NCBI GenBank assembly: GCA_041601915.1
Contig: JBFIHF010000012.1
Span: 1-46,056, forward strand
Length of the DNA stretch: 46,056 nt
Origin: Bradymonadaceae bacterium
Lineage (GTDB): Bacteria; Myxococcota_A; Bradymonadia; Bradymonadales; Bradymonadaceae
Direction of reading: 5' to 3'
Made by a program: the position numbers and the translations under genes. Below the pieces are notes generated by a model. The model worked only from the letters and a program-made list of their open reading frames with translations. It did not search any database and had not been told where the DNA came from. Shown piece by piece: positions 12,339-30,078 of this stretch (its first letter is position 1; each line of letters opens with the position of its first letter).

Positions 12339-14196
12339 GCCGGCGCTCGCAGTCGTAGGTCAGTTCGAGCGCCTTGAGACGCGGCGCGAACACGTTGTTG
12401 TTCGCATCGCGCACCGCCGTCAACTCGACCTCGATCTCGATGAACTGAACCCCTTGCAGCCCCGAGTCGATCACGAGCTGCTCGATGCTGATCGGTGAGG
12501 TCGCCGGCGGCACCGTGGCGACGAGGATCCATCCCGCCGTGGCGACCTCGGCGGGCGTGTTGCCGCCGCGGATCTGGATCGTGACCATCGATCCGCCCGG
12601 AGTCTCCACGTCGAATCGGAGCTCTTTGTATTCGGTCGGCAGGAAGTTGCCGTCCGTCGGGCAGCCCTCGAACAGGCGCCGATAGAACCCGCGCTGGTCG
12701 GTGGCGAAACGCAGCTGTGAGCCGGTCATGTCGGAGTAGGTGTACGGGCTGACCAGCTGTGGCACGACATTGGCGGTGACGGTGTTGTCGTTGAGCGTGG
12801 GACCCGGCACGACGACGGTCGCGTCGTTGTGACTGATGTTGATCGCCCAGACTTTGCCGTCGAGGTCGATCGCCATGCCTTTGGCCGAGGACTGCGTGCC
12901 TGGCACGTCGAGGTGCGACGCGGGATTCTCGGCGTCGTAACGGACGATACCGTTGCCCATCCCAGCGCCCCAGATGAAGCCCTTGTCGTCGGCCGCGATG
13001 CCGTGGATGAACGGGACGTCGGACACGGAGACGATCCGGCTTCCGACGGCCTGCGCCGGGTCGTATCGCAGCGTGGACTGGCCGCCGACCCAGACGCGCT
13101 GCTTGAAGTCGACGGTGATGCCGTAGGGGGTGTGTGTGATCGGAATGCGCTGCTTGATCGCGTCGTCGAAGGCCTCGCCGTCCATCGTGGGCACGTCGCA
13201 GTTGGCGGTCGTCGTGCAGCGCAGGGTGTCGATGCGGCCGAGGGCCCCGTCGGACCAACCCGAAATCCAGAGGTTGCCTTTGCCGTCCAGCGCGAAGCCG
13301 TAGCAGGAGACCGGGGACGGGGTCTGCACGAGGATCGCGCCGGTGTCGCCGTCGAGTTTCCAGACGACGCCGCTCCAGCCGCCGATCCAGACGGCGGGGC
13401 GTGCGGTGTCGTCGTTCACGCGTGCGTCCTGAGCCGCGACGCTACGAATGACGCCGCCGTCGGGCACCGGCACATTCCAGATGATGCAATCGTCCTGGCC
13501 CCACGGAAGGATGTCCGCGGGTCCCGAGGAGGTGGTGATCATCCCGTCGCCGTTGTTGTCGGCGCAGTCCGCGCCGAGCCCCGAGATCTTTGTCACGGTG
13601 CGTCCGCCACGGTTGCCGACGTAGACATCGCCGAACGTGTTGACGCTGGTCCGCGAGGGGTCGTTTCCGCCCGCCGCCGGTCCGGTCCAGTATCGCGCGG
13701 TTTCGGTGAAGGTGTCCGTGTCGACCTTGGAAATCGTGCCCTCGCCGGTGTTCGAGATCCAGATGAACTTGGCCTCGATGCGGCGGATGTCGATGGTGAC
13801 GGCGCCGTCGGCGTCGAGCACCACACCTTGGGAGTTCTCGGTGTCCGTGTTGTCGATCCCGAACGGATTGGGGGTGCCGGGCCCGGCCTCTTCGAGTTGG
13901 CAGAACGCGTCGCAGTTGCCACACACGCCGGGCGTCTCGCAATCTCCGTTGTTCGCCGATGCTTTACAGGTGCCGCCCTCGCAGATGCCGGAGGGGCAGT
14001 CCGTGCCGACGACGCAGGTCCCCGGATTTGCGTTCGGGGTGTTGTTCGGCGTGACGTTGTTGGCGATCGTGTCGTCGTTGGGTTCGGTAATCGTGGATTC
14101 AGTGCAGCCACCACACGATGCAAAGATCGCGATCGAGATGCCCGCGAGTGACCGGGCCAGTATCTGAGAGGGATTCATGGTCGCTGCCTGTGTCAT
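12331..14196 (-). CDS. Secreted lipoprotein with an N-terminal Cys-rich module and a beta-propeller body (NHL/SMP-30/LVIVD-like repeats).
   Basis: There is a signal peptide with a lipobox (IAIFASCGG). The Cys-rich stretch is [20 protein letters not shown]...CGNCDAFC. Repeated ...GxxxxWxG/...GNLWIS... blades are visible. The stop overlaps the purL stop by 8 bp (convergent). Confidence 0.6.
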
Positions 14197-14229
14197 CGTT
14201 CAACAATTTCGACTAGCATAGCACCAGCG

Positions 14230-15255
14230 TTGAGTACCATCAAAAGGTCCGGTCCCCAAATGTCCTCATACCCGCAGTTCATCGCGCGAATCGGACTTCT
14301 GAGCCTCGTCTGGTCGACGGTCGGTTGTGGTCAACCGAACCCGAACAACGAGCCCTCCGATCTGGGACGACCCTCCGACACGCGAGAACCCGATGTCGGC
14401 GAGGACGTCGTGGACGCTCGTCCGGCGGCGCGGCTGAAGGTCGCGACGTTCAACGTCGGTCGCCTCTTCGACACGGTGTGTGATTCGAACAACTGCGGGG
14501 ACAGCAACGATTTCGAGCGCCAGTACAGCCCGCCGGAGTTCGACTTCAAGATCGGTCAGATTGGGGGGGCGCTGGAGGAGTTGGACGCCGACATCGTGGC
14601 GTTGGAGGAGGTCGAGAACCAAGCGTGTCTGGATGCGCTGGTCGCCGAGCGGCCCGAGTACGACTTTGCGGTGCTCGGAGAGATCGGCGGAAGCGCCTCG
14701 CTGGACGTCGCGGTGATCGGGCGCGGGCTGATCCATCTGGAGACCCGGAAACATCGGGCCGACACCCAGCTGATGTTGATCGACGGGCGAACGAAGAGCT
14801 TCGCCCGGGAGTTGCTGGAGGTTCACTTCGAGCTGCAGGGCAAGCGCGTCGTCGTGTTTGCCGCTCACTTCAAGGCGCAGCGCAACGACGATCCGGAGTG
14901 GCGGCTCGGGGAGGCGACGGTCGCACGTGAGATCGCCGAAGCGACCCAGGCGGAGTTTCCCGCCGCGTTTGTGTACCTCAGCGGCGATCTCAATGATGAG
15001 CCCGGCACGCCGCCGCTGGACGCGATCACCGGAAGCGGGGGGCTCGTCTCGGTGACGGAGGGGCTGCCGAAAGAAGACATCTGGACCTACGGCTTCATCA
15101 ACACTCGCATCGCGATCGACCACATCCTGTATGTGCCGGCCGAGGCCGCGGAGCTGGTCGCGGGCACCGCGGAGGTGGTCCGCGACGCGTCGGGTGCGTT
15201 CGGTGGCTCCGATCACGCCGCGCTGCGGGCCGAGTTCAACGTCTTCACGGACTGA
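14230..15255 (+). CDS. Lipoprotein of the endonuclease/exonuclease/phosphatase (EEP, DNase I-like) family.
   Basis: The lipobox is LVWSTVGCG. EEP motifs are LKVATFNVGRLFD, DADIVALEEVEN and the C-terminal SDHAALRAEF. The true start may be the second ATG at ~14260. Confidence 0.7.
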   Translation: MSTIKRSGPQMSSYPQFIARIGLLSLVWSTVGCGQPNPNNEPSDLGRPSDTREPDVGEDVVDARPAARLKVATFNVGRLFDTVCDSNNCGDSNDFERQYSPPEFDFKIGQIGGALEELDADIVALEEVENQACLDALVAERPEYDFAVLGEIGGSASLDVAVIGRGLIHLETRKHRADTQLMLIDGRTKSFARELLEVHFELQGKRVVVFAAHFKAQRNDDPEWRLGEATVAREIAEATQAEFPAAFVYLSGDLNDEPGTPPLDAITGSGGLVSVTEGLPKEDIWTYGFINTRIAIDHILYVPAEAAELVAGTAEVVRDASGAFGGSDHAALRAEFNVFTD

Positions 15256-15286
15256 GGGCGTCAAACTTGGCCGAGCGGGTTGCGGC

Positions 15287-15316
15287 GTTGCCTCGTGGGC
15301 CGAGCGCGTGGTAATA
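15287..15316 (+). promoter_or_regulatory. Candidate sigma70-type promoter, TTGCCT-18-TGgTAATAC (extended -10), upstream of the HEAT-repeat gene.
   Basis: This is a sequence match only. High-GC promoters are poorly predicted by eye. Confidence 0.25.
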
Positions 15317-15346
15317 CTGGTGCATCCCGGGGTGTTTGGAATTTCG

Positions 15347-17050
15347 ATGGATCGTCAAAAGGTCGCCCAACTGGTCGACGCGCTGGACCATCCCGATTCG
15401 GGGTTCCAGCGCGACATCATGGATCAGCTCATCGCAGAGGGCGGGGCGATCCTCGACCCCCTCGTGGCTAATCTGAACCAGGCCGAGCCACGCGCGCGCA
15501 GCTGCATCGTGCGGGTCCTCGGCGAGATCGGCGATCCCGAGGCGTTGCTTCCCTTGATGCGCTTCGTGTTCGATCGCCGCGGCTCGATTCCGGACAGCGA
15601 TGCCCGTGGGTTGGCGATGAAAGCGATCGCCGACCTCGCTCACGGCGATGAGATCGCGCCGAAAATGTTCCAGTTTCTGCTCGAAGTGTATCAGGACGAT
15701 GACGCGTTCGTGCGCGGCTACGCGATGACGTTGCTGGGGCGCTTCGGCGATCGGCGGGCGATGCCGATCGTACAAGAGGCGCTCGTCGACGACACCGACT
15801 TCGTCCAGGAGCGCGCGCGTGCGGCCGTCAAAGCGCTGGAGCAAAAGATCGCCGACGCGCCGAACGAGAGCGTGGACGACGAGGCGCTGCTGCAGGCGAT
15901 TCGCAGTAAGCAGGGGGCCGAACGCCAGTACTACCTGAATGAGCTGCGCGCTCGGCCCAATGCGTTCGAGTTGTGTGAGCAGCTCATCGCCGAGGGAGGG
16001 CGCGGGGTGATCGCGGGGCTCGAGTTCATGCTCGCCACCGACGATCCGAGAGCCCGCGGCGTCGCGCGACGCCAGGCGATGGGGACGGAGACGAGTTCGG
16101 AACTCGCGATCTGCCTACGGATTCTGAACCAGTTTCTGGAAGCTGACGCGACCGACGACGAGCTCGCCACGATCCGCGGGGCGCTGTATCACGAGGACAA
16201 CTTCGTGAAACTCGCCGCGATCGAAGCGGCTGGCCGCTCCGGTGACGCGACGCTGATCGAGCGCGCCGTGGACGCGACGCGCGACCACGATATGGAACGG
16301 CGTCACGCCGCCGCACGCGGGTTGTCATTTGGGCTGAGCCCCTCATTCCGCAAAGTTCTGCCGGACCTCATGCACGCGTTCGGGCTCGCCAATGCGCGCC
16401 GGCTCGCGGTCACGACGGACGACACGGTCCGTATCGAGGCCTATATCGTGCGCGCGATCCGGCTGATTGTTCAAGAAGGTGGGTTCGGCACGACGCAGGC
16501 TCAGGAAGTGGCGCTGACGGCTCTGGAGGGCGCGCTCGATTGCAAACCGCTGCTGGTGACGTCGTTGGAGCTTCTCGACGTCACGACTCCCCAGGAAGGG
16601 TTTCCCAAGGACCGGCGCTGGGAAGCGGAGCTGGCGCGCAACCTCGTCGAGTTGCTACAGCACCCCGACGACGCGGTGCGGGATCGGGTGCTGACCCTGT
16701 TGATGCGGGGCGCGCCACCGATGCGCTCGATGTACCACGCCCTGTCGCGCATTGTGTTCGACAAGGGGGCCGACATCGTCGGCAAAGTCATCCCGCTCAT
16801 CGAGTCGATCGGCGATGACCGCAGCAAGAAGCTGCTGCAAGATCTGGCCGAAGAGAAGGACGAGGCGATCCGCGTCGCGGCGGGCGCCGCTCTGACTCGA
16901 CTGCGCAACACCGAGGACGTCATCGACGCGGAGTTCGAAACGGCGCAGTACGGTCGTGGTGGTCCCGCGATGCAGACGGGAGACGAGCCCCGGAAGGCCG
17001 AATCCGAGGCGGATGTGGCGGACGCCGAATTCGACGACGAAGAATTCTAG
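15347..17050 (+). CDS. HEAT/PBS-lyase-like repeat protein, ~567 aa.
   Basis: HEAT-like units such as VRVLGEIGDPEALLPL and VRGYAMTLLGRFGDRRAMPIV recur along the protein. It ends in an acidic tail. The ORF-track start at 15131 is an upstream extension; the ATG at 15347 matches the onset of the repeats. Confidence 0.65.
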   Translation: MDRQKVAQLVDALDHPDSGFQRDIMDQLIAEGGAILDPLVANLNQAEPRARSCIVRVLGEIGDPEALLPLMRFVFDRRGSIPDSDARGLAMKAIADLAHGDEIAPKMFQFLLEVYQDDDAFVRGYAMTLLGRFGDRRAMPIVQEALVDDTDFVQERARAAVKALEQKIADAPNESVDDEALLQAIRSKQGAERQYYLNELRARPNAFELCEQLIAEGGRGVIAGLEFMLATDDPRARGVARRQAMGTETSSELAICLRILNQFLEADATDDELATIRGALYHEDNFVKLAAIEAAGRSGDATLIERAVDATRDHDMERRHAAARGLSFGLSPSFRKVLPDLMHAFGLANARRLAVTTDDTVRIEAYIVRAIRLIVQEGGFGTTQAQEVALTALEGALDCKPLLVTSLELLDVTTPQEGFPKDRRWEAELARNLVELLQHPDDAVRDRVLTLLMRGAPPMRSMYHALSRIVFDKGADIVGKVIPLIESIGDDRSKKLLQDLAEEKDEAIRVAAGAALTRLRNTEDVIDAEFETAQYGRGGPAMQTGDEPRKAESEADVADAEFDDEEF

Positions 17051-17058
17051 GCCCTAGC

Positions 17059-17973
17059 TCACGCCCAGCGAAATGATTCCATGCACTGCACTTCGTCGTA
17101 CTGATGCGTCCACCCGCTGGCGTCGCGAAACGCCTTGGCGTCGATGACCACGGGATACTTCACATGGTTGACGGCGCCCTTGGGCAGCGGCGGTAGGCCA
17201 AACCGGCCGAGGGCGAACTTGAAGACGCTCTCCGGGACGGCGATGCGTTGGCGTCCCGTGACGCGGATGAGCAGGGACAGTGGGATCGGCTGTGGTCCGC
17301 AGACATTGAAGACGCCGTTGAGCTTCGACTCGAGCGCCGTGCAGATCGCGCCGACGACGTCTTCTTCGTGCATGAACTGAAACAGTGGATCGAAGCCGAG
17401 GATGGTCGGCACTCGCGGCCCGCGCACGAAGCTCGCCAGCGTGCCGGATTTCGTCGGACCGAGCCGGTAGGTGAAGCGCAGCACGGCGGTCGTCATCTCC
17501 CGATATCGCCACAGCGCGGACCCTGCGAAGAGGTCTGCGGCGACGAGGTCGCTGAGCTCGGGAAACGTCGTCATCGCCATCGGGGGTTCGTTTTCGGTGT
17601 GATACATCGGCGAATCGGGCGCGGCGCCGTAGTAGGTGTGGCGCCCGACGAAGATGCAGTGCTTCACCCCGTACTTGCTGGCGTGGTCGAACACGGCCTG
17701 GGTGCCGCCGAGGTTGATGCGGTAGCGGTCCTCGGTCCGTTTCGCGGTCAAATGGGTCACGGTCGCCATATGGATCACGGCGTCGGGCTTCTTGGTCCGG
17801 AAGACGTCTTCGGCCGGTCGTTTGCGGATGTCGGCGCGAAACATCGTGACCTTCTTCGGCGCATCGGGCCACGGTCGTCGGTCGACGCCGTACACCGTGT
17901 GACCGGTCGCGACGAGTTTCTGCGCGACCCGTCGACCGAGGGGCCCCGAGATGCCGGTGATGAGGACCTTCAT
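17059..17973 (-). CDS. NAD-dependent epimerase/dehydratase family protein.
   Basis: Rossmann N-terminus [20 protein letters not shown]. The ATG overlaps the stop of the upstream acyltransferase gene (ATGA). Confidence 0.75.
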
Positions 17974-18824
17974 TCGTCGGCTCCGAGTTCCACGTAGGGC
18001 AGCGCTTCGGGTACTTCGAGGTTGTTGGACCGGCGGCGCTCAACGCCAAAGTCGATCAGCGAGCGGATCTGGCGTTTCACGAGCTCGACGTTGTCGGTAA
18101 TCACTTCGTCGGCCTCATTGCCCGAGCCTTCGAACGTGCGCGCTTCGCCGAAGTAGAGCTGGCAATCCACGGGGCGGGGCACCGGCAGCAGCCACGGGGT
18201 GAACGGCACGTAGGGCACGCCCACGAGCCGTCCGAGCAGCTCGCTGTTGTGGACGGTGGGTATCGCCTCACCGCCGCCGACGAACGCGAACGGCACGATC
18301 GGGGCTTTGGCCTGCATCGCGATGCGCATGAAGCCGGTGCCGAAGCGGACCAGCGAGTTGCGGTCCTTGTACAGCTTCGCGGTGCCGCGGGCTCCCTCGG
18401 GGAACACCATCAGCATCCGATCGTCCTCGAGCAGTCGCACGGCGTGCTCGGGCAGGCCGGTGAGGTGCCCCATGCGGCTGGTCCAGAGTGAGGCGATCGG
18501 GGTGGCGTTGAGGAAGTACTCCGCCATCCCCTGGGCGAGGCGCGGTGGCTCCATCTCCATGAAGGTCGCCGCGATCGTCATCATGCCGTCGAGCGCGACG
18601 CCGCCGGAGTGGTTTCCGACCAGCATCACGCGCCCGCGATCGGGGATGTTGTGAATGCCGTAGGAGCGCACGTTGAGGTAGCGTTCGTAGACCCACGCGA
18701 GGCCGGTCAGCGCGGTGGCGACGTGTTCCTGGGAGATGCCGTAGGGGTCGAGGCCATACCGATTGAACGGGACCTCGAGCCGACGCACGCGATCCCAGAT
18801 GCGCTGACTGGCGAACATCTTCAT
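17970..18824 (-). CDS. PlsC-family lysophospholipid/glycerol-phosphate acyltransferase.
   Basis: Acyltransferase motifs are [11 protein letters not shown] (NHxxxxD) and VFPEGARG (FPEGxR). The start MKMFASQ at 18822-18824 overlaps the upstream lipoprotein stop (ATGA). The ORF-track version extends to 19454 and is not supported. Confidence 0.75.
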
Positions 18825-20578
18825 GGTTTGGGCTTCGGCGCGGGCATCGCCATGTCGACATGCATGAAGATTGCGGTCTCGCGCGGTTCGACGATCAACT
18901 CGGTGCGTCCCAGCGCGAACGCCTCGATCACGGGGCTCGCCGGCATCCCGGCCTCCGCGAACATGCCCCACGCCTTCTTGAGGTCGTAGGCGACGGTGAG
19001 GAAGGACGGCTGCGTCGGCACGGCGGAGACGATCCGTGCGGCCTCGTCGGCGATGCCCAACCCGGAGGTCACGGCCAGTGCGGACGGGGTCAGCACAACA
19101 TGCGGGTCGTCGAGGATGGCGAGCATTTCGGACGGTGGCAGCGCCAGCGGGATGCCGCCCGGATCCGGGGTCACGTTCTGGAACTCGGGCGCCAGTGTTC
19201 GCAGCCACGCGAGCAGCGCGGCGGGCGCCGTGGAATTGACGAGCGCGATGCCCTCGATCTTGAGGGAGGGACCCATCCCGAGGCCGCCGTTCGGCGGCCC
19301 CTGCGGGTTCATGGACGGTGGCGGCGTCGGCGCGGTACGGACGTTTTGAACGACCAGGGCGCCTCCGCGCAGGTTGGTGATCATCGCGGGGACGAACGCG
19401 GACTTCGCCGTGAACTCGTTGGCGAAGCCGTTGATGTCGCGGTACCACGCGCATTCATAGGGCCGCTGTTGGACCGCGAACAGCTCAGCGTTGACGACGT
19501 CGAGCAGCTTGCTGACGTCGAAGCCGAATGCCGCCACGAATGGTGCCTGCCCCGCGAGCTCCGAGTTGACGAGCGGCGCGTGGGTCGTCGTCTCGGCGAG
19601 CCGTCCGGCGATCCCGGTGGTGAGCTCGATGCCGACGCCAATGCGAGCGCGGGTGCCGGTCCACTCCTCATAGCCGAAGACCATCCGAGGCACCTGCTCG
19701 ACGAGGCGCTTGGTCTCGGCGAGACACTCCGGCGGGGTCGGGTCCCGCATGTCGCCGATCAGCAGCTGGATCTGGTCGTTGAGCCCGGTGCCCGGCTCGA
19801 GCACGATCTGAGCGACTCGCGCGAAGTCGATGAAGCCAGCGCCGAACTTCTTGAACCCGTGCTTTTCGGCGACCGGCGAGATGCGGTTGTCGTTCGCCAT
19901 CGACTTTTCGGGCAGCTTCGCGCCGAGCAGGTAGGTCGTGTACAGCTCGGCGGACACCTGTGGCGTGACGCCCCAGACGAGCTGCCGGTTGATGATCGAC
20001 ATCACGATGAGGTCGCCACCGTCGAACTTGTACGTCCAGAAGTCGGTGGTGCCGAGCACCTCACGCTGCGACGCGAAGCCGGAACGCTTCTCGACGCGCT
20101 GGACGAGCGCCCGAAACGCATCGGGGTCGTCGAGGTCCATGCGGAAGGCCGGCAAGAATCCGATGCCGTGTACCGCGAAGCGCGGGCTCGTACTGAGTCC
20201 CAGTTTCTTGAAGCCTTCGACGGAGTAGTTCCCGGACATCTCCGAGACCACGGCGTAGACGAGCTTGGTACGGGGATCGATGTACTCGTCGGCGAGCATG
20301 TCGTCGATGTTGGGGAGCATCGCCTCAATCGAGGAGGCCCAGCCCTGGATCCACGCCAGCATCGGGCCAATTGGCATCGGCTCGACGGCGACGTAGGCAT
20401 AGGGGGTGTCCGCCGGGATCGTGGCGAGGAATCCGCGCACGGGATCCTTGTCCGAGACGAGGTCCGAATCGGCCCGCTTGTTCTTGCCGCTGCACCCGGC
20501 GAGCGCCACACATACACAGATCAGCATCGCCCCGGCGGACCAAGCGGCGCGCGCGAAGGGAGTGGGGAGATTTCTCAT
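18821..20578 (-). CDS. Lipoprotein of unknown function, ~585 aa. It is the first gene of a three-gene minus-strand operon.
   Basis: Signal peptide plus lipobox MRNLPTPFARAAWSAGAMLICVCVALAGCSG. No recognisable catalytic motifs were found. Confidence 0.6.
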   Translation of the reverse strand: MRNLPTPFARAAWSAGAMLICVCVALAGCSGKNKRADSDLVSDKDPVRGFLATIPADTPYAYVAVEPMPIGPMLAWIQGWASSIEAMLPNIDDMLADEYIDPRTKLVYAVVSEMSGNYSVEGFKKLGLSTSPRFAVHGIGFLPAFRMDLDDPDAFRALVQRVEKRSGFASQREVLGTTDFWTYKFDGGDLIVMSIINRQLVWGVTPQVSAELYTTYLLGAKLPEKSMANDNRISPVAEKHGFKKFGAGFIDFARVAQIVLEPGTGLNDQIQLLIGDMRDPTPPECLAETKRLVEQVPRMVFGYEEWTGTRARIGVGIELTTGIAGRLAETTTHAPLVNSELAGQAPFVAAFGFDVSKLLDVVNAELFAVQQRPYECAWYRDINGFANEFTAKSAFVPAMITNLRGGALVVQNVRTAPTPPPSMNPQGPPNGGLGMGPSLKIEGIALVNSTAPAALLAWLRTLAPEFQNVTPDPGGIPLALPPSEMLAILDDPHVVLTPSALAVTSGLGIADEAARIVSAVPTQPSFLTVAYDLKKAWGMFAEAGMPASPVIEAFALGRTELIVEPRETAIFMHVDMAMPAPKPKP

Positions 20579-20695
20579 GGTCGTCGTCCGCAGGAGTGAG
20601 TCGCCATGCTGTACTCGATGAGCGGCGTAGTTCGCAAGGTAGTTGGCCTTTGTACGTGACTCGGAGCACCCGCGGGAAACAGCATGCCACCGGGG

Positions 20696-20724
20696 TTGAG
20701 CAATTCGGGGCGGCGGTCGATAAT
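20696..20724 (+). promoter_or_regulatory. Candidate sigma70 promoter TTGAGC-17-GATAAT, ~27 nt upstream of the giant TPR gene start.
   Basis: Near-consensus -35 and -10 hexamers with 17-nt spacing lie in the divergent intergenic region 20579-20750. Confidence 0.4.
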
Positions 20725-20750
20725 GCTCGCCACTTCGTGATGAAGAGTGG

Positions 20751-23700
20751 ATGTCCAAAGACCAAGACAAGCGCCATAACATCGACCAGACGTCCCCCGA
20801 TCTCGGTCCTGCTTTCGAGCCGGACGGGACGTTCCTGGAGGACTGGTCGATGGCGGAAGACCTCGCGGAGGGCCGCGACGGCGGCTACGCCCCGACCCGC
20901 GATCCGTCTCCTCGCAATGTCGATGACGTGCATCGGTCGGCATGGATCGATCTGGACGAAGTCGCCGACGCGGCGAGTTCCGTAATCCTGGAGCTGCTCG
21001 ATGACGAGTTCCTGGAGATCAGCAGCGGCCGAGATTTCGGCGAGGGGACGATCGACGAACTTCAGCGTGTGATGTCGCAGCCGCTCGGTGAGGCGCCGGA
21101 GCCCGAGATCCCCCGAGTGGATACGCAGGAGATCGAGATTTTCGCCGACGACGAGTCGGCGGACCCGTTTGACGCGACCGGGATTCAGATCATCGACGTC
21201 GACACCGGGGAGGTGATGCCGACGCTGGACTCGGGCTTCCTGCTGATCGACGACAACGAGTCGTCGAAGCGGAACCTCGCGATGACGCTGGACGGCGTGT
21301 CCGCGCAGATCGACCTGCCACGGCCGTGGGGTGCGTATCTGGGTGAGCTTCGCGACGAGATCGTCGCGCAATCGGACCCGAGGACGCGCGCGGCGTACAT
21401 CTTCATCTTCGGTGAGCTCATCCGGACGCTGGGCGCCTCGACGTCGAGTCGCCCCCCCGACGTCGACATCTCCGCGATCGCGGGGACGATGACGCGCCCC
21501 GATCTGCTGGAGCGGCTGTCGGCGCAGTGGGCCTCTCCGCGGTCGAGCTTCTTCGAGCTGCTCGCTCGGCTGGAGCGGCTCGACGAGCCGGAGGAAGGGG
21601 CGGTCGCGACCGTCCGGCGCTCATCGATCGTGCGCGAGCGGTTGCTCGACGGGGGGCTCGATGACGCGACGCGTCTGCGACTGCGCGAGCTACTCACTCC
21701 GCCGGAGAGCTTTCACGCGCTGGTGGTCAAGGCCGTCGATGCCCATGCGGCGGGCGAAACCGCGGTGGCGATCGGGGCATGGGAGGGGCTGAGCCAGTAC
21801 ACCAAAGGCGAGCTCGCGACGGCGTGCATCGCGCTCACGGGATGGCTGCTGCAAGGGACCCGCGGTTTGCTCGAGGTGGGCAACGCCCAGCTCGATGTCG
21901 GCCGGAACTCGCGACCGCTGCTGCTGATGATGCAGCGCGAAGCGGTGCGCTTTGCGGACCGGCTTCAGGAGGCGCGCGTGCTCAAGCGCCTGGTCGGCCT
22001 CGATGTGCACCTCGGCAAGCGGCTGCCCGACGAGGCCGGGGCCCGGTCGCGGCTCAAGGCTGAAACGGCCGCGCGCCTGTTCCGGTTGTCCACGATCATC
22101 GAGGGGATCTCCGAGACCGAGATCGCGAGCTCCGACGTCGCGGGCATGACGAGCTACTCGGTGCTGCTGGACGCGATTTCGCTGAGCGCGAAGAACCCGT
22201 TGTTTCTGCGGCGGCTCGAGGTGCAGGCGCGGCGGCGCGGCGACCAGGCGATGCTGGAGAAGGCGCTGATCTCGTTGGCGGCGGTCGTTGGCGAACCCCA
22301 CGTGCGCGCCGTGATTTGGGAGCGCATCGCCGATCTTGCGCGCCGCAGCGGCGCATCGCCGGAGATCGTCCGCGATCACCTGGAGCGGTCGTTGGACGCC
22401 GCCCCGGACTGTCTGCCGGCCTTGATCTCGATGGGACAACATCTCATCCGGACCGGCAGCTTCGAAGCGATGGTCAACCTGCGCGGCGGTCCGTCCACGG
22501 AGGAGTCGGCGGACCTGAACCTCGCGTGGCGCCGGGCGGAGCTGCTGGAACGCACCGGCGGCGACCCGGTCGAGATTCTGTCGCTGTATCGCGACGCGCG
22601 CGATGATCATCCGGCCAGCGTGCACTTGTTCTTCTGCGTCGAGCGCGCGTTGGCGCGGCTTGCCGACTGGCGCGGGCTGCGGACGTTGTACGAATCGGCG
22701 GTCGCGCCGGACAGTGGGCTCGCGGAGAACTTGCGGGCCAGTCGATTCAACGCCGAGCAGTACCGACTGGCGGTCGAGGCGTTCCTTGAGGACGCGTCCG
22801 GTGACCTGTCCGACGCGATGGTCCGGCACCTCGATCGGCCCGGCACCGCGACGGCGCAGGACGACACCGACGAACTTCGCATCGATCAAAACGTGCTCTG
22901 GCGCGTCGTCGCCGAAGAGATCGACCAGGACCCGGGGCGCACGCTGGGTCGACTCGAGGTGCTGCTGCAGACCTCGCGCGGCAAGTCGCCTGCGTGGCGA
23001 CTGCGCGCGCTGATCTGGTATGCGCACCTCGTCGAGGATGTGATGGGGGAGGCCGAGCGCGCGCTGCCCGCCTATCGTGAGGTCTTCGATCGCGCGCAGG
23101 GTGGCTTCCTGCGCCGGTGGGCGGTCCGCGGACTGCTGCGGACCGGCGACGCATCGTGGGTCGCGGAGCATCTCGCCGAGGGCGGGGGCCCCGCGTGGGT
23201 GGACCGCGACGGCGACCACGTCAGCTTCCGGCGCCGCATGGCCGCGGAGTTGATGGGGATGTCGGCCGATGCGGGCCAGGCGCTGGACATCCTCGAGGAG
23301 ATCGAGACGGACGACGATGTCGCGCTGGCCGAGCTCGCGGAGCGCGCCACCGTGCTGGCGATCCGGTCTCGGCAATGGGTTCGCGCGATCCCGTGGATGT
23401 TTCGCTGCTACCCCGAGCACTCTCGCGGCGCGCTCGCCGAGATTGCGCGCCACTTCGGTGCGGCGTTCGACGACGCCGATGAGGCCCTGCGCTACATCGA
23501 CGCGGCGCAGACGCGCACTCCGTTGGACCCCTATGTCATCTTGTGCGAACTGGAGCTCGCGTACCGCGCGCGGGATTGGGGGCGCGCGCTGGACCTGATT
23601 CAGGACGGACTCGGCACCATTGCGGCGGGCTCGATCGACTTTCGGGCGTTCTTGCTCGAGCAGGCGATCCTCGTGGCAGAGTGGGGCGAGCGCAGCGACG

Positions 23701-26700
23701 AACGCGCCCTGACGTTCCTCGAAGATCTGTGGAGCTTGCAGGCGACGGTGGGGTCGTCCCCGATTTTCGGCGCGGCGGCGTTCCTGCGCACCTACGCGCG
23801 CATGAAGCGCGGAGCCGAGCTGTCCGAGCACACCGAATACGTGCGCGCGAACTTCACGCCGTCGGTTGCCGAAGCGCTGCTCGGCGAGTCGCTCGTCTAC
23901 GAGGAGGCGTCGTCGGGAGCGGAAGCCGGGGCGTGGTACACGTCGCGCCTCGACAGCGTGCCGACCCCGCTGATCCCGTACTACCGGTTCATGGCGGCCG
24001 TGGTCGGCTGGATGTTCGGCGATCGCGACCGCACGGCGGTCCAAGACCTCGCCGACGCCACCGCGGCGAGTGACCCGACCCATCGCGTGGGCCCGTTTCT
24101 GTTGGCGATCGCGTATCGGCACGCCGACATGTACGCGTCGTGCGAGCGCCAACTGACGGCGCTGCGCACCCCGGGCCACAGCCGGCCGGTGCAGGACTGG
24201 GTGCTGGTGCGCCAACTGTTCCATCTGGCGGTGACACAGAACCAGACGCAAGAAGCGTTGGAGATGCTTCGTCAGGACGAGGCGTTCGGGCAGTTCGCCT
24301 GGTATTCGATCGCCGAGGAACTCTTCGCGCGAGCGCTGCGCGATCCGAGCGTGGTACCGGCGCTGGCCGAGCGCGCGAAGACGTCCGCCGGATCGCGGAA
24401 CCTGCATCTCGAGATCGCGGAGATTACCGGGGACCGCGAAGCGCTCGTCGCGCTGGCCGAGGACGAACTCCCCGAAGCGGTCGGCCAGGCGGAGATGCTC
24501 GCGGCACAAGGCGTCGCGGTATCGTTGCCGCGTTGGGACATCACCGACCGGCACGCCGCGCTGCTCACCAGCATCCGGGAGTCGTCGGCCGACGTCGCCG
24601 AACAGGTGGTCGACTATTTCAGCGACGTCGACGAAGAGCTGTTGGGCTCGCCGTGGTGTCCGCTTCGCGCCGTGAACGGGGATCTGCACCGGTTCGGTTT
24701 GAGCCGTGCGCAGCAGGACGCGTTGAGGCGACGCTGCGGCGAGTTCTCCGAGGTGGAGATGGGTGCGGAGGCGCGCCTGGTCTTGGCCCGGCAGCTACTG
24801 CGGTCTGGTCGGCGCGATGATGCGACGGCCTTGATGCCGCAGGGGCCAAGCTGGCACCTCGTCTCGGTCGCATGGTCGCTGTTCAACTTCGCCGTCGATC
24901 CGTTCAACCGAGATGCGAAGACGACGCACTGGGTGCTCGACCTGTGGGATCGCCGTCAAGGGATGTCTCGGAGCACCCTCGATTCGGAACTCGAGTACGA
25001 GATCGGGCGGTACCTGGAGCTCGTCGGCCAGCACGGCGAGGCGATCGACGCGATGCGCCGCGCGCTGAAGTCGTCCCCGCGGTTTCTGCCGGCGCAGGTC
25101 GCGGCGGGCCGGATGCTGATCGTCGCCGAGGACTGGCACGGCCTCGCCTCGCTGTGGGAAGCGGAGATGGAGTTCACCGAGGACGTGCAGGCGCTGGCGA
25201 GCGTCGCGTTCCGGCTCGGGTATCTGTGGGAACGCCGACTTCACGATCTTCCCGACGCGCGCCGCCACGCCGAGGACGCGTATCGACGCGTCTTGCGCGT
25301 GCGTCCGAACCACTTCCCTACGCTGCACGCGTTGCTGGGGATGGCGTATGACGCCCAGGACTGGGCCGCGGCCGCCGAACACCTCGAGGCGATCGCGACC
25401 TCGTGTCCGGATGCCGCGCTGCGCTCGTCGTATCTGTGCGAGCTCGCCGCCACGCGGGAGACGCATCTGGAGGACCTGCCGGGCGCGTGTGCCGCGTACC
25501 GCGGGGCGTTCCAGATCAGCCCGGAGTCCGTCGACGCGTTGTTTGGCGTGTTGCGCACCGACACGGACTCCCACGTCACCGTCGACGTGATTCGCGCGCG
25601 GCTGCGCCACGGCGTGACGCAGCGTGAGTTGCGCGAGCTCTGTCACCATTTGTTTGCCGCGACGCGCACCGACGCCGCGGCGGACGACCTGCTGTCCGAT
25701 GCGATGCCGACTCACTATGCGTGGCTGACCTCGAAGCTCATCCGCGGTGCGGAGGCCGGCAAGTTCGACGAGTCCGCGGCGGAGGCACTCAGCGACCATT
25801 ACGGCGAGGAGCCGACGCGGTTCATGATCGAGGCGTTCCGGCGCCGGATGGAGCCGCAGACCGTCGCAGGGATGAACAACCTCGTCGAGCTGTCACGTGG
25901 AATTGGCACGCATCCGCTCGCCGAGGGCCAGCTCGTGCGATGCATGCACTACGCGCGGCGGACAGGTGACCTCGAGGCGCTCGGCACTCTGGCGGGCGTG
26001 CGCGCACGCCGTTCGGCGACCGAGTTGGTACGTGCTGCGGAGCTGACGTGGCTCGCGGTGACGCTGATGCTGCGCGAGGAATGGGACGACGCACTGGAGA
26101 TCACCCAGCAGCTCCTCGAACAGGTGCCCAACTTTCTGCCCGCCGTGAAGACGGCGAAATACGCCGCGGACGTCGCCCAGGACTGGGAAGCGGTGGTGCG
26201 CTGGTTCGAGGCGGACGCGGTGCTGACGCTGGTGCCTGAGATCGCGTCTCGCGATCGGCTGTACGCATCCGAAGTCCAGCAACGCCACCTCGGTGACTTC
26301 GACGCCGCGCTCACTCAGCTGCGCACGGTGCTGCTGTCCAAGCCGACGCACCCCGAAGCGTTCACGAAGCTTCGCGACATCCTGCTCACGAAGCGCCAGT
26401 ATGTCGAACTACTGGAGGCCTACGAAAGTCGTGTCGCGCACACGACGTCCGAAGAGGAGCGGTCGGAGCTGCTCAACCAGATGGGCGATATCGCGCTCAA
26501 TCACGTGCGCGATCGGCCGCTGTCGATCGGGTTCTACAGCCGCTCCCTCGAGTTGCGACCGCGTCAACTCCGCCGGTTGCGCGTGCTGTCCGAGCTCTAC
26601 GAGGCCGAGCAGCGCTGGGACCGCGCGGTGGTGTGTCATCGCGCCTCCGCGGAGCTCATCGGCGATACGATCGTGCTCGGACGTCTGTGGTGCCACATCG

Positions 26701-28052
26701 GGATGTTGTACGAGACGAAGCTGCTCGACCTGAAGAAGGCCAAGAACGCGTACGCGCAGGCGCTCAAGATCGACTCGGACGCCACCGAAGTGCTGCTCGC
26801 GCTGGCGCGGGTGTGCGAGCGCCTCGAAGACTACGCGGACGCGGCGGCGCTGCAGAGCAAGGTCGTGATGATCTCCCGGGACGCCAAAGTGCTGCTCGAT
26901 GCTCGCATCGGCATCGCGCGACTGCAGCAGCGCCTCGGGGCGTCGCCGGCCGAGGTGCTGGGCGCGATCCGGAACGTCCTGTTGCACCACCCCGGCCACG
27001 GGCCGTCGATCGACGCGGCGAAGAAGGCGCTCGCCCGCACCGGGCTCCCGGGCGACACCGAAGACTTCTTCCAGGACCTGTCGCACGCGATCATCACGCA
27101 GCACGGGGCGGCGGCGTTGCCGTCGACTTACGAGATGGCGATGAATCTGGGTCACCGCGACCGCGCCTACTGCATCGCGTCGATCGCCCGCGAGCTCAAC
27201 GTGGCGTCGCCCCCGATGCAACAGATTCTGCAGGAGCTGTCGACGCAGCGCCGCTGGCCGGTGCGACCGCTGCCGCCGGAATTGACGGGGGCGGTGCTCC
27301 CCGAAGGGCTCGTCGCCCCGTTCGTCGAGCTGCTGCGCCGCAGCCGTGACGCGATCTTCGAGGGGATGGACTCGATGCCCGCCCAGCAGATGGTCAAGAA
27401 GGGGAGCCGACTGCGCGAGCCAAAGAACAAGGCGACGCAGCTGGCGTTCCAGTGGCCGGGCTTGTTTGGCCTCGAGCTGCGTGACGTCCACACGCTCAAA
27501 GGCGTCCCGGGCGGCTGTGCGGTGCACTTTGATGGCGGCGTGCGACTCGTCCTCGACGAGCGCTGGCTGGAGGTCAAGGAGCCCACGGCGCTGCTCGTCT
27601 CGCTGGGCGAACACCTCGCGGCGTGGTCGATGGGCATTGGTCCGTGGGCGTTGTTGGACCCCGACGCCCAGCAGTCGCTCTTCATCGCGATCGTCTCGAA
27701 CTACGTGCGCGGCTGGGCTCACGCGGAGCGAGCCCATCTGCCGAAGACGATCGTCTACCCACGGATCCAGCGCTGGCTGGAGCGCAAGGGCCAGAAAGTG
27801 GCGCCGTATGCGCTCGAGATCTCCGGTCGCTTTGGTGCCGCCGCGATTCGTCAGCAATTCGAGCTGTTGCACGAAGCGGAGAAACGCCTCGCATGCCTGT
27901 TGATCGACGACCCCGGCAGTGCGCTCAACGCGACGGGGCTCTTGCGCAAACCGCAAGCGGGCGAGCGGCCGGCGTGGCTGTTCATGCTCGGCGCGCCGGC
28001 CGCCCGGTTGCGCAAGGCCGTCGGGGTCACGGTGGGTGAGCCCCGGGCGTGA
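20751..28052 (+). CDS. Giant (2433 aa) cytoplasmic TPR-rich all-helical protein with an acidic disordered N-terminus.
   Basis: A single ORF uninterrupted over 7.3 kb. The N-terminal ~200 aa are D/E-rich. There are multiple TPR-like units, e.g. ...FRLGYLWERRLHDLPDARRHAEDAYRRVLRVRPNHFPTLHALLGMAYDAQDW... and ...IGMLYETKLLDLKKAKNAYAQALKIDSDATEVLLALARVCERLEDYADAA.... No signal peptide is present. Confidence 0.75.
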   Translation: MSKDQDKRHNIDQTSPDLGPAFEPDGTFLEDWSMAEDLAEGRDGGYAPTRDPSPRNVDDVHRSAWIDLDEVADAASSVILELLDDEFLEISSGRDFGEGTIDELQRVMSQPLGEAPEPEIPRVDTQEIEIFADDESADPFDATGIQIIDVDTGEVMPTLDSGFLLIDDNESSKRNLAMTLDGVSAQIDLPRPWGAYLGELRDEIVAQSDPRTRAAYIFIFGELIRTLGASTSSRPPDVDISAIAGTMTRPDLLERLSAQWASPRSSFFELLARLERLDEPEEGAVATVRRSSIVRERLLDGGLDDATRLRLRELLTPPESFHALVVKAVDAHAAGETAVAIGAWEGLSQYTKGELATACIALTGWLLQGTRGLLEVGNAQLDVGRNSRPLLLMMQREAVRFADRLQEARVLKRLVGLDVHLGKRLPDEAGARSRLKAETAARLFRLSTIIEGISETEIASSDVAGMTSYSVLLDAISLSAKNPLFLRRLEVQARRRGDQAMLEKALISLAAVVGEPHVRAVIWERIADLARRSGASPEIVRDHLERSLDAAPDCLPALISMGQHLIRTGSFEAMVNLRGGPSTEESADLNLAWRRAELLERTGGDPVEILSLYRDARDDHPASVHLFFCVERALARLADWRGLRTLYESAVAPDSGLAENLRASRFNAEQYRLAVEAFLEDASGDLSDAMVRHLDRPGTATAQDDTDELRIDQNVLWRVVAEEIDQDPGRTLGRLEVLLQTSRGKSPAWRLRALIWYAHLVEDVMGEAERALPAYREVFDRAQGGFLRRWAVRGLLRTGDASWVAEHLAEGGGPAWVDRDGDHVSFRRRMAAELMGMSADAGQALDILEEIETDDDVALAELAERATVLAIRSRQWVRAIPWMFRCYPEHSRGALAEIARHFGAAFDDADEALRYIDAAQTRTPLDPYVILCELELAYRARDWGRALDLIQDGLGTIAAGSIDFRAFLLEQAILVAEWGERSDERALTFLEDLWSLQATVGSSPIFGAAAFLRTYARMKRGAELSEHTEYVRANFTPSVAEALLGESLVYEEASSGAEAGAWYTSRLDSVPTPLIPYYRFMAAVVGWMFGDRDRTAVQDLADATAASDPTHRVGPFLLAIAYRHADMYASCERQLTALRTPGHSRPVQDWVLVRQLFHLAVTQNQTQEALEMLRQDEAFGQFAWYSIAEELFARALRDPSVVPALAERAKTSAGSRNLHLEIAEITGDREALVALAEDELPEAVGQAEMLAAQGVAVSLPRWDITDRHAALLTSIRESSADVAEQVVDYFSDVDEELLGSPWCPLRAVNGDLHRFGLSRAQQDALRRRCGEFSEVEMGAEARLVLARQLLRSGRRDDATALMPQGPSWHLVSVAWSLFNFAVDPFNRDAKTTHWVLDLWDRRQGMSRSTLDSELEYEIGRYLELVGQHGEAIDAMRRALKSSPRFLPAQVAAGRMLIVAEDWHGLASLWEAEMEFTEDVQALASVAFRLGYLWERRLHDLPDARRHAEDAYRRVLRVRPNHFPTLHALLGMAYDAQDWAAAAEHLEAIATSCPDAALRSSYLCELAATRETHLEDLPGACAAYRGAFQISPESVDALFGVLRTDTDSHVTVDVIRARLRHGVTQRELRELCHHLFAATRTDAAADDLLSDAMPTHYAWLTSKLIRGAEAGKFDESAAEALSDHYGEEPTRFMIEAFRRRMEPQTVAGMNNLVELSRGIGTHPLAEGQLVRCMHYARRTGDLEALGTLAGVRARRSATELVRAAELTWLAVTLMLREEWDDALEITQQLLEQVPNFLPAVKTAKYAADVAQDWEAVVRWFEADAVLTLVPEIASRDRLYASEVQQRHLGDFDAALTQLRTVLLSKPTHPEAFTKLRDILLTKRQYVELLEAYESRVAHTTSEEERSELLNQMGDIALNHVRDRPLSIGFYSRSLELRPRQLRRLRVLSELYEAEQRWDRAVVCHRASAELIGDTIVLGRLWCHIGMLYETKLLDLKKAKNAYAQALKIDSDATEVLLALARVCERLEDYADAAALQSKVVMISRDAKVLLDARIGIARLQQRLGASPAEVLGAIRNVLLHHPGHGPSIDAAKKALARTGLPGDTEDFFQDLSHAIITQHGAAALPSTYEMAMNLGHRDRAYCIASIARELNVASPPMQQILQELSTQRRWPVRPLPPELTGAVLPEGLVAPFVELLRRSRDAIFEGMDSMPAQQMVKKGSRLREPKNKATQLAFQWPGLFGLELRDVHTLKGVPGGCAVHFDGGVRLVLDERWLEVKEPTALLVSLGEHLAAWSMGIGPWALLDPDAQQSLFIAIVSNYVRGWAHAERAHLPKTIVYPRIQRWLERKGQKVAPYALEISGRFGAAAIRQQFELLHEAEKRLACLLIDDPGSALNATGLLRKPQAGERPAWLFMLGAPAARLRKAVGVTVGEPRA

Positions 28053-28801
28053 CCCTTCACGTCCACCGTTTCGGGACCGGCGAGCAACACCACTACCTCG
28101 GAATCCATGGATGGGGTGGCGGGTGGCGCACGTTCGAGCCACTGGCGCCGTTCGTGCCCGAGGACGCGACGCTGTGGAGCGTCGACCTGCCGGGCTACGG
28201 CAGCTCGGCCCCGCTACGCGAGTGGCGGTGGGAGCAGCTCACCGACCGCATTGTCGAGACACTCGAGGCAATCGACGCGCCGCGATTTCAGCTCGTCGGA
28301 AACTGTAGCGGCGCCGCCTTTGGACTCGCGGCCGCGTTGCGCCGCCCCGATCAGTTCGAACGGCTGGTCCTGATCGACCTGTTCGCGTACTTCCCGTGGT
28401 ACTTCGAGCTACTCGTCGCGCCCGCCGTCGGACGCATGTTCTACGCGACCGCGTTTCAGAATCCGGTCGGCCGGTGGATCACCGATCGGGGCCTCGCTGA
28501 TCACCGGGCCGAGGATTCGGACCTGACCGCTTCGTTCGAGGCGCTGGACCATGACGTCGTGCACCAGTATCTGCGGATGTTGCACCAGTTGCCTGCGGTG
28601 GCGACATTTGCCGGCCTGCAGCAGCCGATCGTGCTGGTGTACGGCGAGCATACGTTCGGCGCGGTACGCGAATCGGTGCGGCGCTGCTCGCGGATCTGGC
28701 CCCACGCGCGGGCCGTCGAACTCGCCGGCGCGGGCCACCTGCCCATCCAGGAGGCGACCTCCACGCTCGCGGCGCAGATCTTCGCCGGCACGATGCAATG
28801 A
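28049..28801 (+). CDS. Alpha/beta-hydrolase-fold protein with Cys at the nucleophile-elbow position (GNCSG).
   Basis: A GTG start overlaps the TPR gene stop (GTGA). There is an HG oxyanion motif (IHGWGGG), an elbow VGNCSGAAFG and a C-terminal GAGHLP histidine. Confidence 0.65.
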   Translation: MTLHVHRFGTGEQHHYLGIHGWGGGWRTFEPLAPFVPEDATLWSVDLPGYGSSAPLREWRWEQLTDRIVETLEAIDAPRFQLVGNCSGAAFGLAAALRRPDQFERLVLIDLFAYFPWYFELLVAPAVGRMFYATAFQNPVGRWITDRGLADHRAEDSDLTASFEALDHDVVHQYLRMLHQLPAVATFAGLQQPIVLVYGEHTFGAVRESVRRCSRIWPHARAVELAGAGHLPIQEATSTLAAQIFAGTMQ

Positions 28802-28965
28802 GTTCTTGAGCCGGCCCCGTGCGTTCGTTATGCTCTAGAAACTTGGGAAAGACTGGAGGGGGATTGCAACCTACCTCGCCACTCGCGATGCTCGGCGAGT
28901 GCGGGGGCGTTGTGTTTTGGGCGTGATCGCGCAGGGTCACGACCCCAAGGACCGGCTGTGGTAGA

Positions 28966-30074
<1,109 letters not shown>

Positions 30075-30078
<4 letters not shown>

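Follow-up and report, generated by a model that had tools for sequence, protein, structure and literature searches.

What does a giant repeat protein do in a bacterium, and does it belong functionally with the genes that follow it? The question is raised by a stretch of 46,056 nucleotides (nt) from a Bradymonadaceae bacterium (contig JBFIHF010000012.1 of assembly GCA_041601915.1, positions 1 to 46,056 of the forward strand; this whole stretch is hereafter the window). One gene of the window, 20751..28052 on the plus strand, encodes a protein of 2433 amino acids (aa), which we call the giant. Downstream of it, on the same strand, come the AmmeMemoRadiSam triad (TIGR04335/04336/04337) and then a gene for an MVP-like protein. 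Few bacterial gene products are as poorly understood as giant repeat proteins, and a preliminary description of the locus had taken this one for a likely scaffold. Such a role stays the best functional guess. With somewhat better than even confidence, we read the giant as a non-catalytic, lineage-specific interaction scaffold that is not a conserved part of the AmmeMemoRadiSam/MVP block, the role of a platform being what we infer.

The reality of the gene had to be considered, since the G+C content of the region is about 66% and spurious long open reading frames (ORFs) are consequently common; one of 999 aa lies on the opposite strand inside the giant ORF. The G+C content by codon position identifies the giant ORF, and not the 999-aa one, as the real gene: in each 300-nt segment between 21200 and 27800, it amounts to 0.82–0.93 in third positions, about 0.4–0.5 in second positions and about 0.7 in first positions of the giant ORF, and the stop-to-stop frame 20724–28052 gives 0.71/0.47/0.86 for the three positions. 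Both the ORF call and this continuous coding signal bear out the earlier report of a single ORF (2433 codons and a stop). Furthermore, an independent Logan read-set assembly contained an identical 2433-aa protein (P0162), and ten orthologues of 2389–2456 aa (41–76% identity) aligned over their full length from a common Met1, conservation being even along the alignment with a mean column identity of 64%. Given the unbroken coding signal, the identical independent protein and the full-length orthologues, the gene is real and intact; of a frameshift or an assembly error splitting such a long ORF, there is no sign.

Most of the giant is predicted to be an alpha-solenoid. Pfam TPR models match it only at aa 1416–2040, where they exceed their gathering scores: TPR_19 reaches 37.6 bits (cut-off 25), TPR_8 36.8 (25.7), TPR_2 34.2 (27), TPR_1 28.4 (27.8), TPR_11 27.3 (26.8) and TPR_6 27.9 (26.3). 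By these thresholds the giant belongs to the TPR clan, and its modelled helix-turn-helix hairpins are stacked as a solenoid. From the Pfam models we delimit a canonical TPR array at aa ~1421–2084 (25011..27002, plus strand, as for all parts of the protein). Neither aa 1–1400 nor aa 2085–2433 gave any Pfam match even at E up to 5, and NCBIfam and PADLOC models, run on the whole giant and on its sub-regions, returned nothing for these two regions. It is the structure model alone that assigns aa 190–1200 to a TPR/HAT-like solenoid; as modelled, TPR/HAT-like helical hairpins make up about 1,900 aa of the protein, following an N-terminal tail.

Comparison with short family members of ~1,600 aa divides this solenoid further. 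In tblastn searches, aa 134–580 of the giant aligned to the 1671-aa protein of locus L012 (related loci are referred to here by such numbers) and aa 175–561 aligned to the 1631-aa protein of L014. These short members align just to aa ~134–580 and 1422–2426, which indicates that the long form carries a central solenoid expansion of ~840 aa. We therefore distinguish an N-terminal helical-hairpin module, all-helical in the model and common to the short members (aa ~190–580; 21318..22490), from a central expansion present in the long form only (aa ~581–1420; 22491..25010). A comparison of the giant with itself by BLAST revealed no internal repeats at E up to 0.01, suggesting that the repeat array is ancient and diverged.

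The solenoid is followed by a C-terminal alpha+beta domain of 349 aa (aa 2085–2433; 27003..28049), whose predicted fold recalls, weakly yet consistently, that of zincin/M48 proteases and which has no HExxH. Its predicted model is confident (predicted local distance difference test score, pLDDT, 88.6; predicted template modelling score, pTM, 0.88), and a globular model of this quality implies that the repeats do not reach the C-terminus. The preliminary picture of solenoid repeats running to the very end thus stood for most of the giant but failed for its last part, the solenoid ending at about residue 2085. The modelled domain comprises a backing helix, a three-stranded sheet and a long helix, in this order. 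Two independent structure searches placed M48/zincin-type zinc proteases on top, with weak scores and no sequence-level support: Foldseek ranked ZMPSTE24 first (E 0.035), followed by MATCAP, BlaR1, a putative zinc peptidase, SprT and HtpX, while the best matches across the two methods were HtpX, ZMPSTE24/Ste24, projannalysin, BepA, MATCAP and BlaR1.

The helix after the three-stranded sheet, which bears HExxH in zincins, reads LGxxLAxWSMG in this domain, and the positions of the His/Glu/His ligands are variable or occupied by Ala/Gly. No HExxH was present at the equivalent helix in 32 aligned representatives of at least 330 aa; an ancestral HExxH, looked for down to the most distant members, was not found. 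Peptidase_M48 and other peptidase Pfam models did not match aa 2085–2433 at E up to 5, and a PDB sequence search with the profile of the C-terminal family gave no match at E up to 1. Since the zinc-ligand positions are kept neither in the orthologues nor in the 32 representatives, sequence and model together argue that the domain is not a metalloprotease of known type, but rather a pseudo-zincin or a convergent fold. It has a signature of its own, LGxxLAxWSMGIGPW, accompanied by conserved DRA, RRWP, LVAP and SGRF motifs. A hidden Markov model search of 1.84 billion cluster representatives found the domain in only 42 of them, always at the C-terminus, and it came after the TPRs in all five members scanned with Pfam. 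We consider it, judging by its sequence, a new and family-specific domain.

At the other end of the giant there is an acidic tail, predicted to be disordered (aa 1–189; 20751..21317), which we recognised by its composition, its pLDDT and its conserved short motifs. Asp and Glu account for 24.5% of aa 1–200, the net charge of which is −36, and the AlphaFold pLDDT stays below 50 over aa 1–196. An acidic N-terminus with predicted disorder had thus been described correctly; its supposed low complexity was not confirmed, since the entropy of the tail (3.5–3.9 bits in 40-residue windows) is similar to the protein mean of 3.62 and motifs such as ASSVILELLD and DPFDATGIxIVDVDTGEV are kept among orthologues. 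The conserved motif at aa 138–155 reads DPFDATGIQIIDVDTGEV, and T143, G144, V150, T152 and G153 are invariant in the orthologue alignment. A regular expression for this motif matched in four of 21 members checked, all of them full-length orthologues; the acidic character of the N-terminus is found in most of the distant family members as well. A Kyte–Doolittle scan (19-residue window, maximum 1.35) detected no transmembrane-like segment in the giant, for which reason the protein is probably cytoplasmic. This upholds the transmembrane half of the earlier statement that both a signal peptide and a transmembrane segment are absent, no signal-peptide predictor having been run.

Two length classes form the family, one of ~2,240–2,565 aa and another of ~1,450–1,710 aa. 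A scan of 185,579 species-representative genomes yielded six loci, five of them in Bradymonadales, Bradymonadaceae or Microvenator metagenome-assembled genomes (MAGs) and the sixth in a MAG labelled just 'bacterium'; the peptide patterns used came from the central region of the long form, so that carriers of the short form would escape such a scan. With the short forms included, the family appears so far only in Bradymonadales genomes and in metagenome contigs without taxon; no member has been identified outside this order, to which synteny and identity, too, suggest that the organism of the window probably belongs. PADLOC assigned no defence family to either the giant or the hydrolase described below, and literature searches brought up nothing relevant on the giant family, on a pairing of MVP with AmmeMemoRadiSam, or on the hydrolase of carotenoid clusters to which we return below.

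We next consider what surrounds the gene. To this end, 14 related loci were examined through their gene calls and in tblastn searches with the proteins of the window. The upstream neighbour of the giant lies on the opposite strand, which means that the giant opens a transcription unit. A promoter-like site, TTGAGC-17-GATAAT (20696..20724, plus strand), ends 27 nt before the ATG and is the only sigma-70-like match in 14001–34000. The site is thus where the preliminary description had placed its best promoter-like match; taken singly, however, one such match does not exceed chance, the expectation in 20 kilobases (kb) being 1.5 ± 1.2. It gains weight from its conservation in orthologous upstream regions: four of them have TTGnnn-17-GATAATG equally far from the ATG, with L001, L002 and L005 among the carriers. 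L004 has, by our reading of the alignment, TTGACA-18-GATACT further upstream.

The gene directly downstream encodes a 250-aa alpha/beta hydrolase (28049..28801, plus strand) with the nucleophile elbow GNCSG, the GTG start of which overlaps the TGA stop of the giant (GTGA). This coupling had been noted before, and its conservation can now be added, since the overlapping pairing recurs in relatives that are only 41–44% identical. A hydrolase gene overlaps the stop of the giant in the window, L008 and L010 (GTGA), in L007 (ATGA) and in L004 (4 nt). Cys86 of the hydrolase occupies, in the alignment, the position of the catalytic Ser of solved homologues (GHSMG in PDB 7dq9); GNCSG is invariant among Bradymonadales orthologues, and GNCSGA is found in 114 of 120 database homologues. 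A variation on the arrangement occurs in L018, where an Endo_dU gene (PF01949) overlaps the stop of the giant (ATGA) and is overlapped in turn by the hydrolase gene; Endo_dU also stands directly after the giant in L019 and L012. The coordinates of Endo_dU are 12741–13328 in L018, 12862–13452 in L019, 8029–8613 in L012 and 11555–12142 in L005; it was not found in the window. In L002 and L005 the hydrolase gene is displaced or inverted. L001 lacks it within 10 kb, and no copy is seen in the sequence that L012 (~6 kb) and L014 (<1 kb) offer downstream.

The hydrolase family as such is widespread, with named homologues in Blastocatellia, other Acidobacteria and Zixibacteria. Homologues sharing 47–49% identity lie inside carotenoid clusters in L015, from a Blastocatellia genome, and L016, a JGI metagenome contig without taxon. 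These clusters contain genes for phytoene synthase, CrtI-like desaturases, a glycosyltransferase, Caroten_synth and a CarH-like regulator. The homologues themselves (L015, 8001–8786; L016, 8001–8795) stand between a CrtI-like desaturase and a glycosyltransferase or polyprenyl synthase. Based on its gene contexts, members of this family of hydrolases with a Cys nucleophile may be acyl-transferases or hydrolases that modify carotenoids and have so far gone unrecognised as such.

Of all neighbours, a gene for a HEAT-repeat protein (15347..17050, plus strand; Pfam HEAT_2, 76.5 bits) is the one most widely conserved across the family. Its ORF opens at 15131, but the probable start is M73 (nt 15347), because orthologues align from about residue 70 and the first 72 residues are rich in Arg, Ser and Pro. 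Orthologues were found beside the giant in L002, L004, L007, L008, L009, L018 and L019, and the short forms of L012 and L014 also have one next to them (33% identity). Overall, as far as gene order and sequence go, the features conserved around the giant are the promoter-like site, the downstream overlap and the HEAT-repeat neighbour.

How might such a protein work? If the giant is a non-catalytic scaffold, the grooves of its solenoid would bind partner proteins or peptides, and its protease-like end domain would be a pseudo-enzyme to which peptides or partners bind. The acidic tail could recruit partners or fold back on the solenoid. The likeliest stoichiometric partners would be the co-translated hydrolase and the HEAT-repeat protein. 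It is tempting to go further and to suppose that the giant, the HEAT-repeat protein and the Cys hydrolase form a large, cytoplasmic, lineage-specific assembly in which a metal-less zincin fold is re-used for docking of substrates or partners. We regard this extension as doubtful; if true, the assembly would amount to a pseudo-protease scaffold of a new kind, without a counterpart in other bacteria.

Several points weigh against reading the giant as a scaffold that is separate from the downstream block. 'Scaffold' is the default for any long TPR protein. Nine charged residues of the C-terminal domain (D2137, R2138, E2193, D2245, D2261, D2269, E2356, D2386 and D2387) are invariant, so that an unrecognised catalytic activity is possible. 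The hydrolase, to judge from its distribution, is not a dedicated partner of the giant, because its family is widespread and occurs in carotenoid clusters elsewhere. The neighbourhoods compared come from fairly close genomes, and shared ancestry could account for much of the synteny. Finally, there is no terminator-like site here between the giant and the AmmeMemoRadiSam/MVP genes, and in this genome they may be co-transcribed.

Among the alternatives, a tie to lipid or pigment ester metabolism fares best, although we find it unlikely. According to it, the giant would organise the hydrolase, and perhaps a PlsC-type acyltransferase and an epimerase, at a cytoplasmic or membrane-proximal site. 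The stop/start overlap with the hydrolase is conserved in both clades, homologues of the hydrolase reside in the carotenoid clusters described above, and conservation upstream extends to the acyltransferase, the epimerase and a lipoprotein. In the window, these three are an NAD-dependent epimerase (17059–17973, minus strand; Pfam), a PlsC-type acyltransferase (17970–18800, minus strand; Pfam) and a 585-aa putative lipoprotein (18821–20578, minus strand), which has no Pfam or NCBIfam match and whose lipobox we recognised by reading the N-terminus. The same genes also occur in L002, L004, L005, L007–L009, L018 and L019. However, this block (17059..20578, minus strand) is transcribed away from the giant, and its orientation is not constant: lipoprotein, acyltransferase, epimerase and HEAT-repeat genes form a block in most loci, which in the window and L018 is inverted relative to L002. 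The window contains no carotenoid genes, the hydrolase is missing or moved in the loci named above, and nothing in the giant points to lipid or pigment binding. We treat the upstream block as genomic context that does not imply a functional tie to the giant.

Another possibility, and a very unlikely one, is that the giant is a shortened member of the ~3,700-aa TPR giants of Polyangia, such as the 3737-aa protein of Sandaracinus amylolyticus (P0027), and has the same role. More than 100 matches to our query, with E values from 1e-68 to 1e-20, came from such proteins, which are likewise very long and uncharacterised and are built of the same kind of TPR unit. Yet these matches cover only 5–29% of the query and fall within repeat regions (aa 474–662 and 1423–2089), they contain nothing that corresponds to the C-terminal domain (best E 0.95), and the lengths differ by ~1,300 aa. 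The neighbours differ, as does the lineage: the Sandaracinus giant is accompanied by an aminotransferase and Peptidase_MA_2, and has neither a HEAT-repeat gene nor an alpha/beta hydrolase gene beside it. A common family with the Polyangia giants was thus rejected in favour of similarity at the level of repeats. In the Sandaracinus amylolyticus locus (L017; CP011125.1, 4637387–4664600), the 3737-aa giant is followed by Aminotran_4, and Peptidase_MA_2 is nearby; in one relative, P0057, an Aminotran_4 domain is fused to the protein. These arrangements hint at a different conserved partnership in the Sandaracinus giant family.

The position of the giant directly upstream of the AmmeMemoRadiSam/MVP block and on its strand, as reported in the preliminary description, is correct, but the functional tie that it implied did not survive the comparison of synteny. 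By analogy with eukaryotic minor vault proteins, one could see the giant as an accessory scaffold of a vault-like/AmmeMemoRadiSam system, co-expressed with the radical SAM, Memo, AMMECR1 and MVP-like genes. In the window all of these genes are on one strand within 13 kb, with the lack of a terminator-like site already mentioned. The MVP-like protein (768 aa; 31568–33874, plus strand; MVP_shoulder 56 bits, Vault_3 35 bits) is encoded directly after the triad and before an ABC1 kinase gene. Five relatives of 56–67% identity also have AmmeMemoRadiSam genes no more than 10 kb from the giant, which is seen only in relatives at least 56% identical. Gene calls and tblastn show this for L001, L002, L005 and L019, and it is possible for L018, where the contig ends first. 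Among them, L001, L005 and L019 carry the triad on the opposite strand, whereas in L002 its genes are separated, with others in between. No triad lies within 10 kb in L004, L007, L008, L009 or L010, nor in the clade of 41–44% identity; the short forms of L012 and L014 lack it too, as far as their sequence reaches. The MVP-like protein gave no tblastn match in L001–L019. The comparison revealed neither a conserved operonic linkage of the giant with AmmeMemoRadiSam nor a conserved co-occurrence with MVP, and the giant has none of the TEP1/vPARP domains (no TROVE, NACHT, WD40, PARP or vWA domain). Synteny has thus largely refuted the vault reading, which we hold to be highly improbable. Since the MVP-like gene is adjacent only here and the triad varies in placement or is absent, the proximity of the giant to these genes looks like a local accident of gene order, and students of the MVP-like/AmmeMemoRadiSam block should not presume that the giant belongs to it.

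Least probable of all is an active TPR-guided metalloprotease, a cytoplasmic analogue of BepA whose M48-like domain would cleave substrates captured by the TPRs: the structural matches to zinc proteases and the location of the domain after a TPR array recall BepA, which combines M48 and TPR, but the missing ligands of the LGxxLAxWSMG helix in the 32 aligned members and the lack of peptidase or PDB sequence matches speak against it.

Some further observations concern the neighbours. The 585-aa protein begins with MRNLPT...VALAGC, which has the look of a lipoprotein signal with a lipobox, and it is duplicated in L002. In the short-form loci, Band_7/SPFH genes adjoin the pair of HEAT-repeat and giant genes (L012, 32–1288; L014, 5872–8616). 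The shoulder domain of MVP has an SPFH-like structure; these Band_7 genes showed no detectable sequence link to the MVP-like protein of the window. Further downstream, a 567-aa protein (36589–38292, minus strand) combines Schlafen AlbA_2, HATPase_c_4 and Fic-like_C domains and matches the pAgo-associated and SIR2-PNTD models of PADLOC (best E 3.8e-20), so its gene may be defence-related. A 1468-aa ORF (41431–45837, minus strand) shows a strong coding signal. In L002, L012 and L019, a Pkinase/AAA_16/TPR protein of 1467–1480 aa is encoded a few genes away from the giant, and the window ORF may be the same gene.

Our results delimit the family by its domain boundaries, its long (~2,400-aa) and short (~1,600-aa) forms, its previously unannotated end domain, its small operon and its HEAT-repeat neighbour. 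Bradymonadales are described as predatory in the literature; for their cultured members, studied as bacterial predators, the HEAT-repeat protein and the hydrolase are concrete candidates for interaction with the giant.

Finally, we would like to compare the giant, still read as a non-catalytic and lineage-specific scaffold, with known systems. Its solenoid resembles those of the eukaryotic HAT/TPR scaffolds SART3, RNA14/CstF77, TTC21B/IFT139 and Get4 in a generic manner, at 9–12% identity, and such a likeness gives no evidence of common function or ancestry. TEP1 and vPARP, the minor vault proteins, are also very large and occur alongside MVP, just as an MVP-like gene lies 3.5 kb downstream of the giant in the window; however, they have no domain in common with it, and relatives do not keep the MVP-like gene near the giant. 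BepA/YfgC from the periplasm of E. coli is an M48 zinc protease fused to a TPR domain, but it is secreted, shorter than 500 aa and retains HExxH, with the protease part N-terminal to the TPRs. The giant, in contrast, has 2433 aa, no transmembrane-like segment, its domain at the C-terminus, no HExxH, and no sequence similarity to BepA. The closest likeness in fold is to HtpX, Ste24 (ZMPSTE24) and the minigluzincins (projannalysin), the backing helix, three-stranded sheet and long helix of which resemble those predicted for aa 2085–2433.

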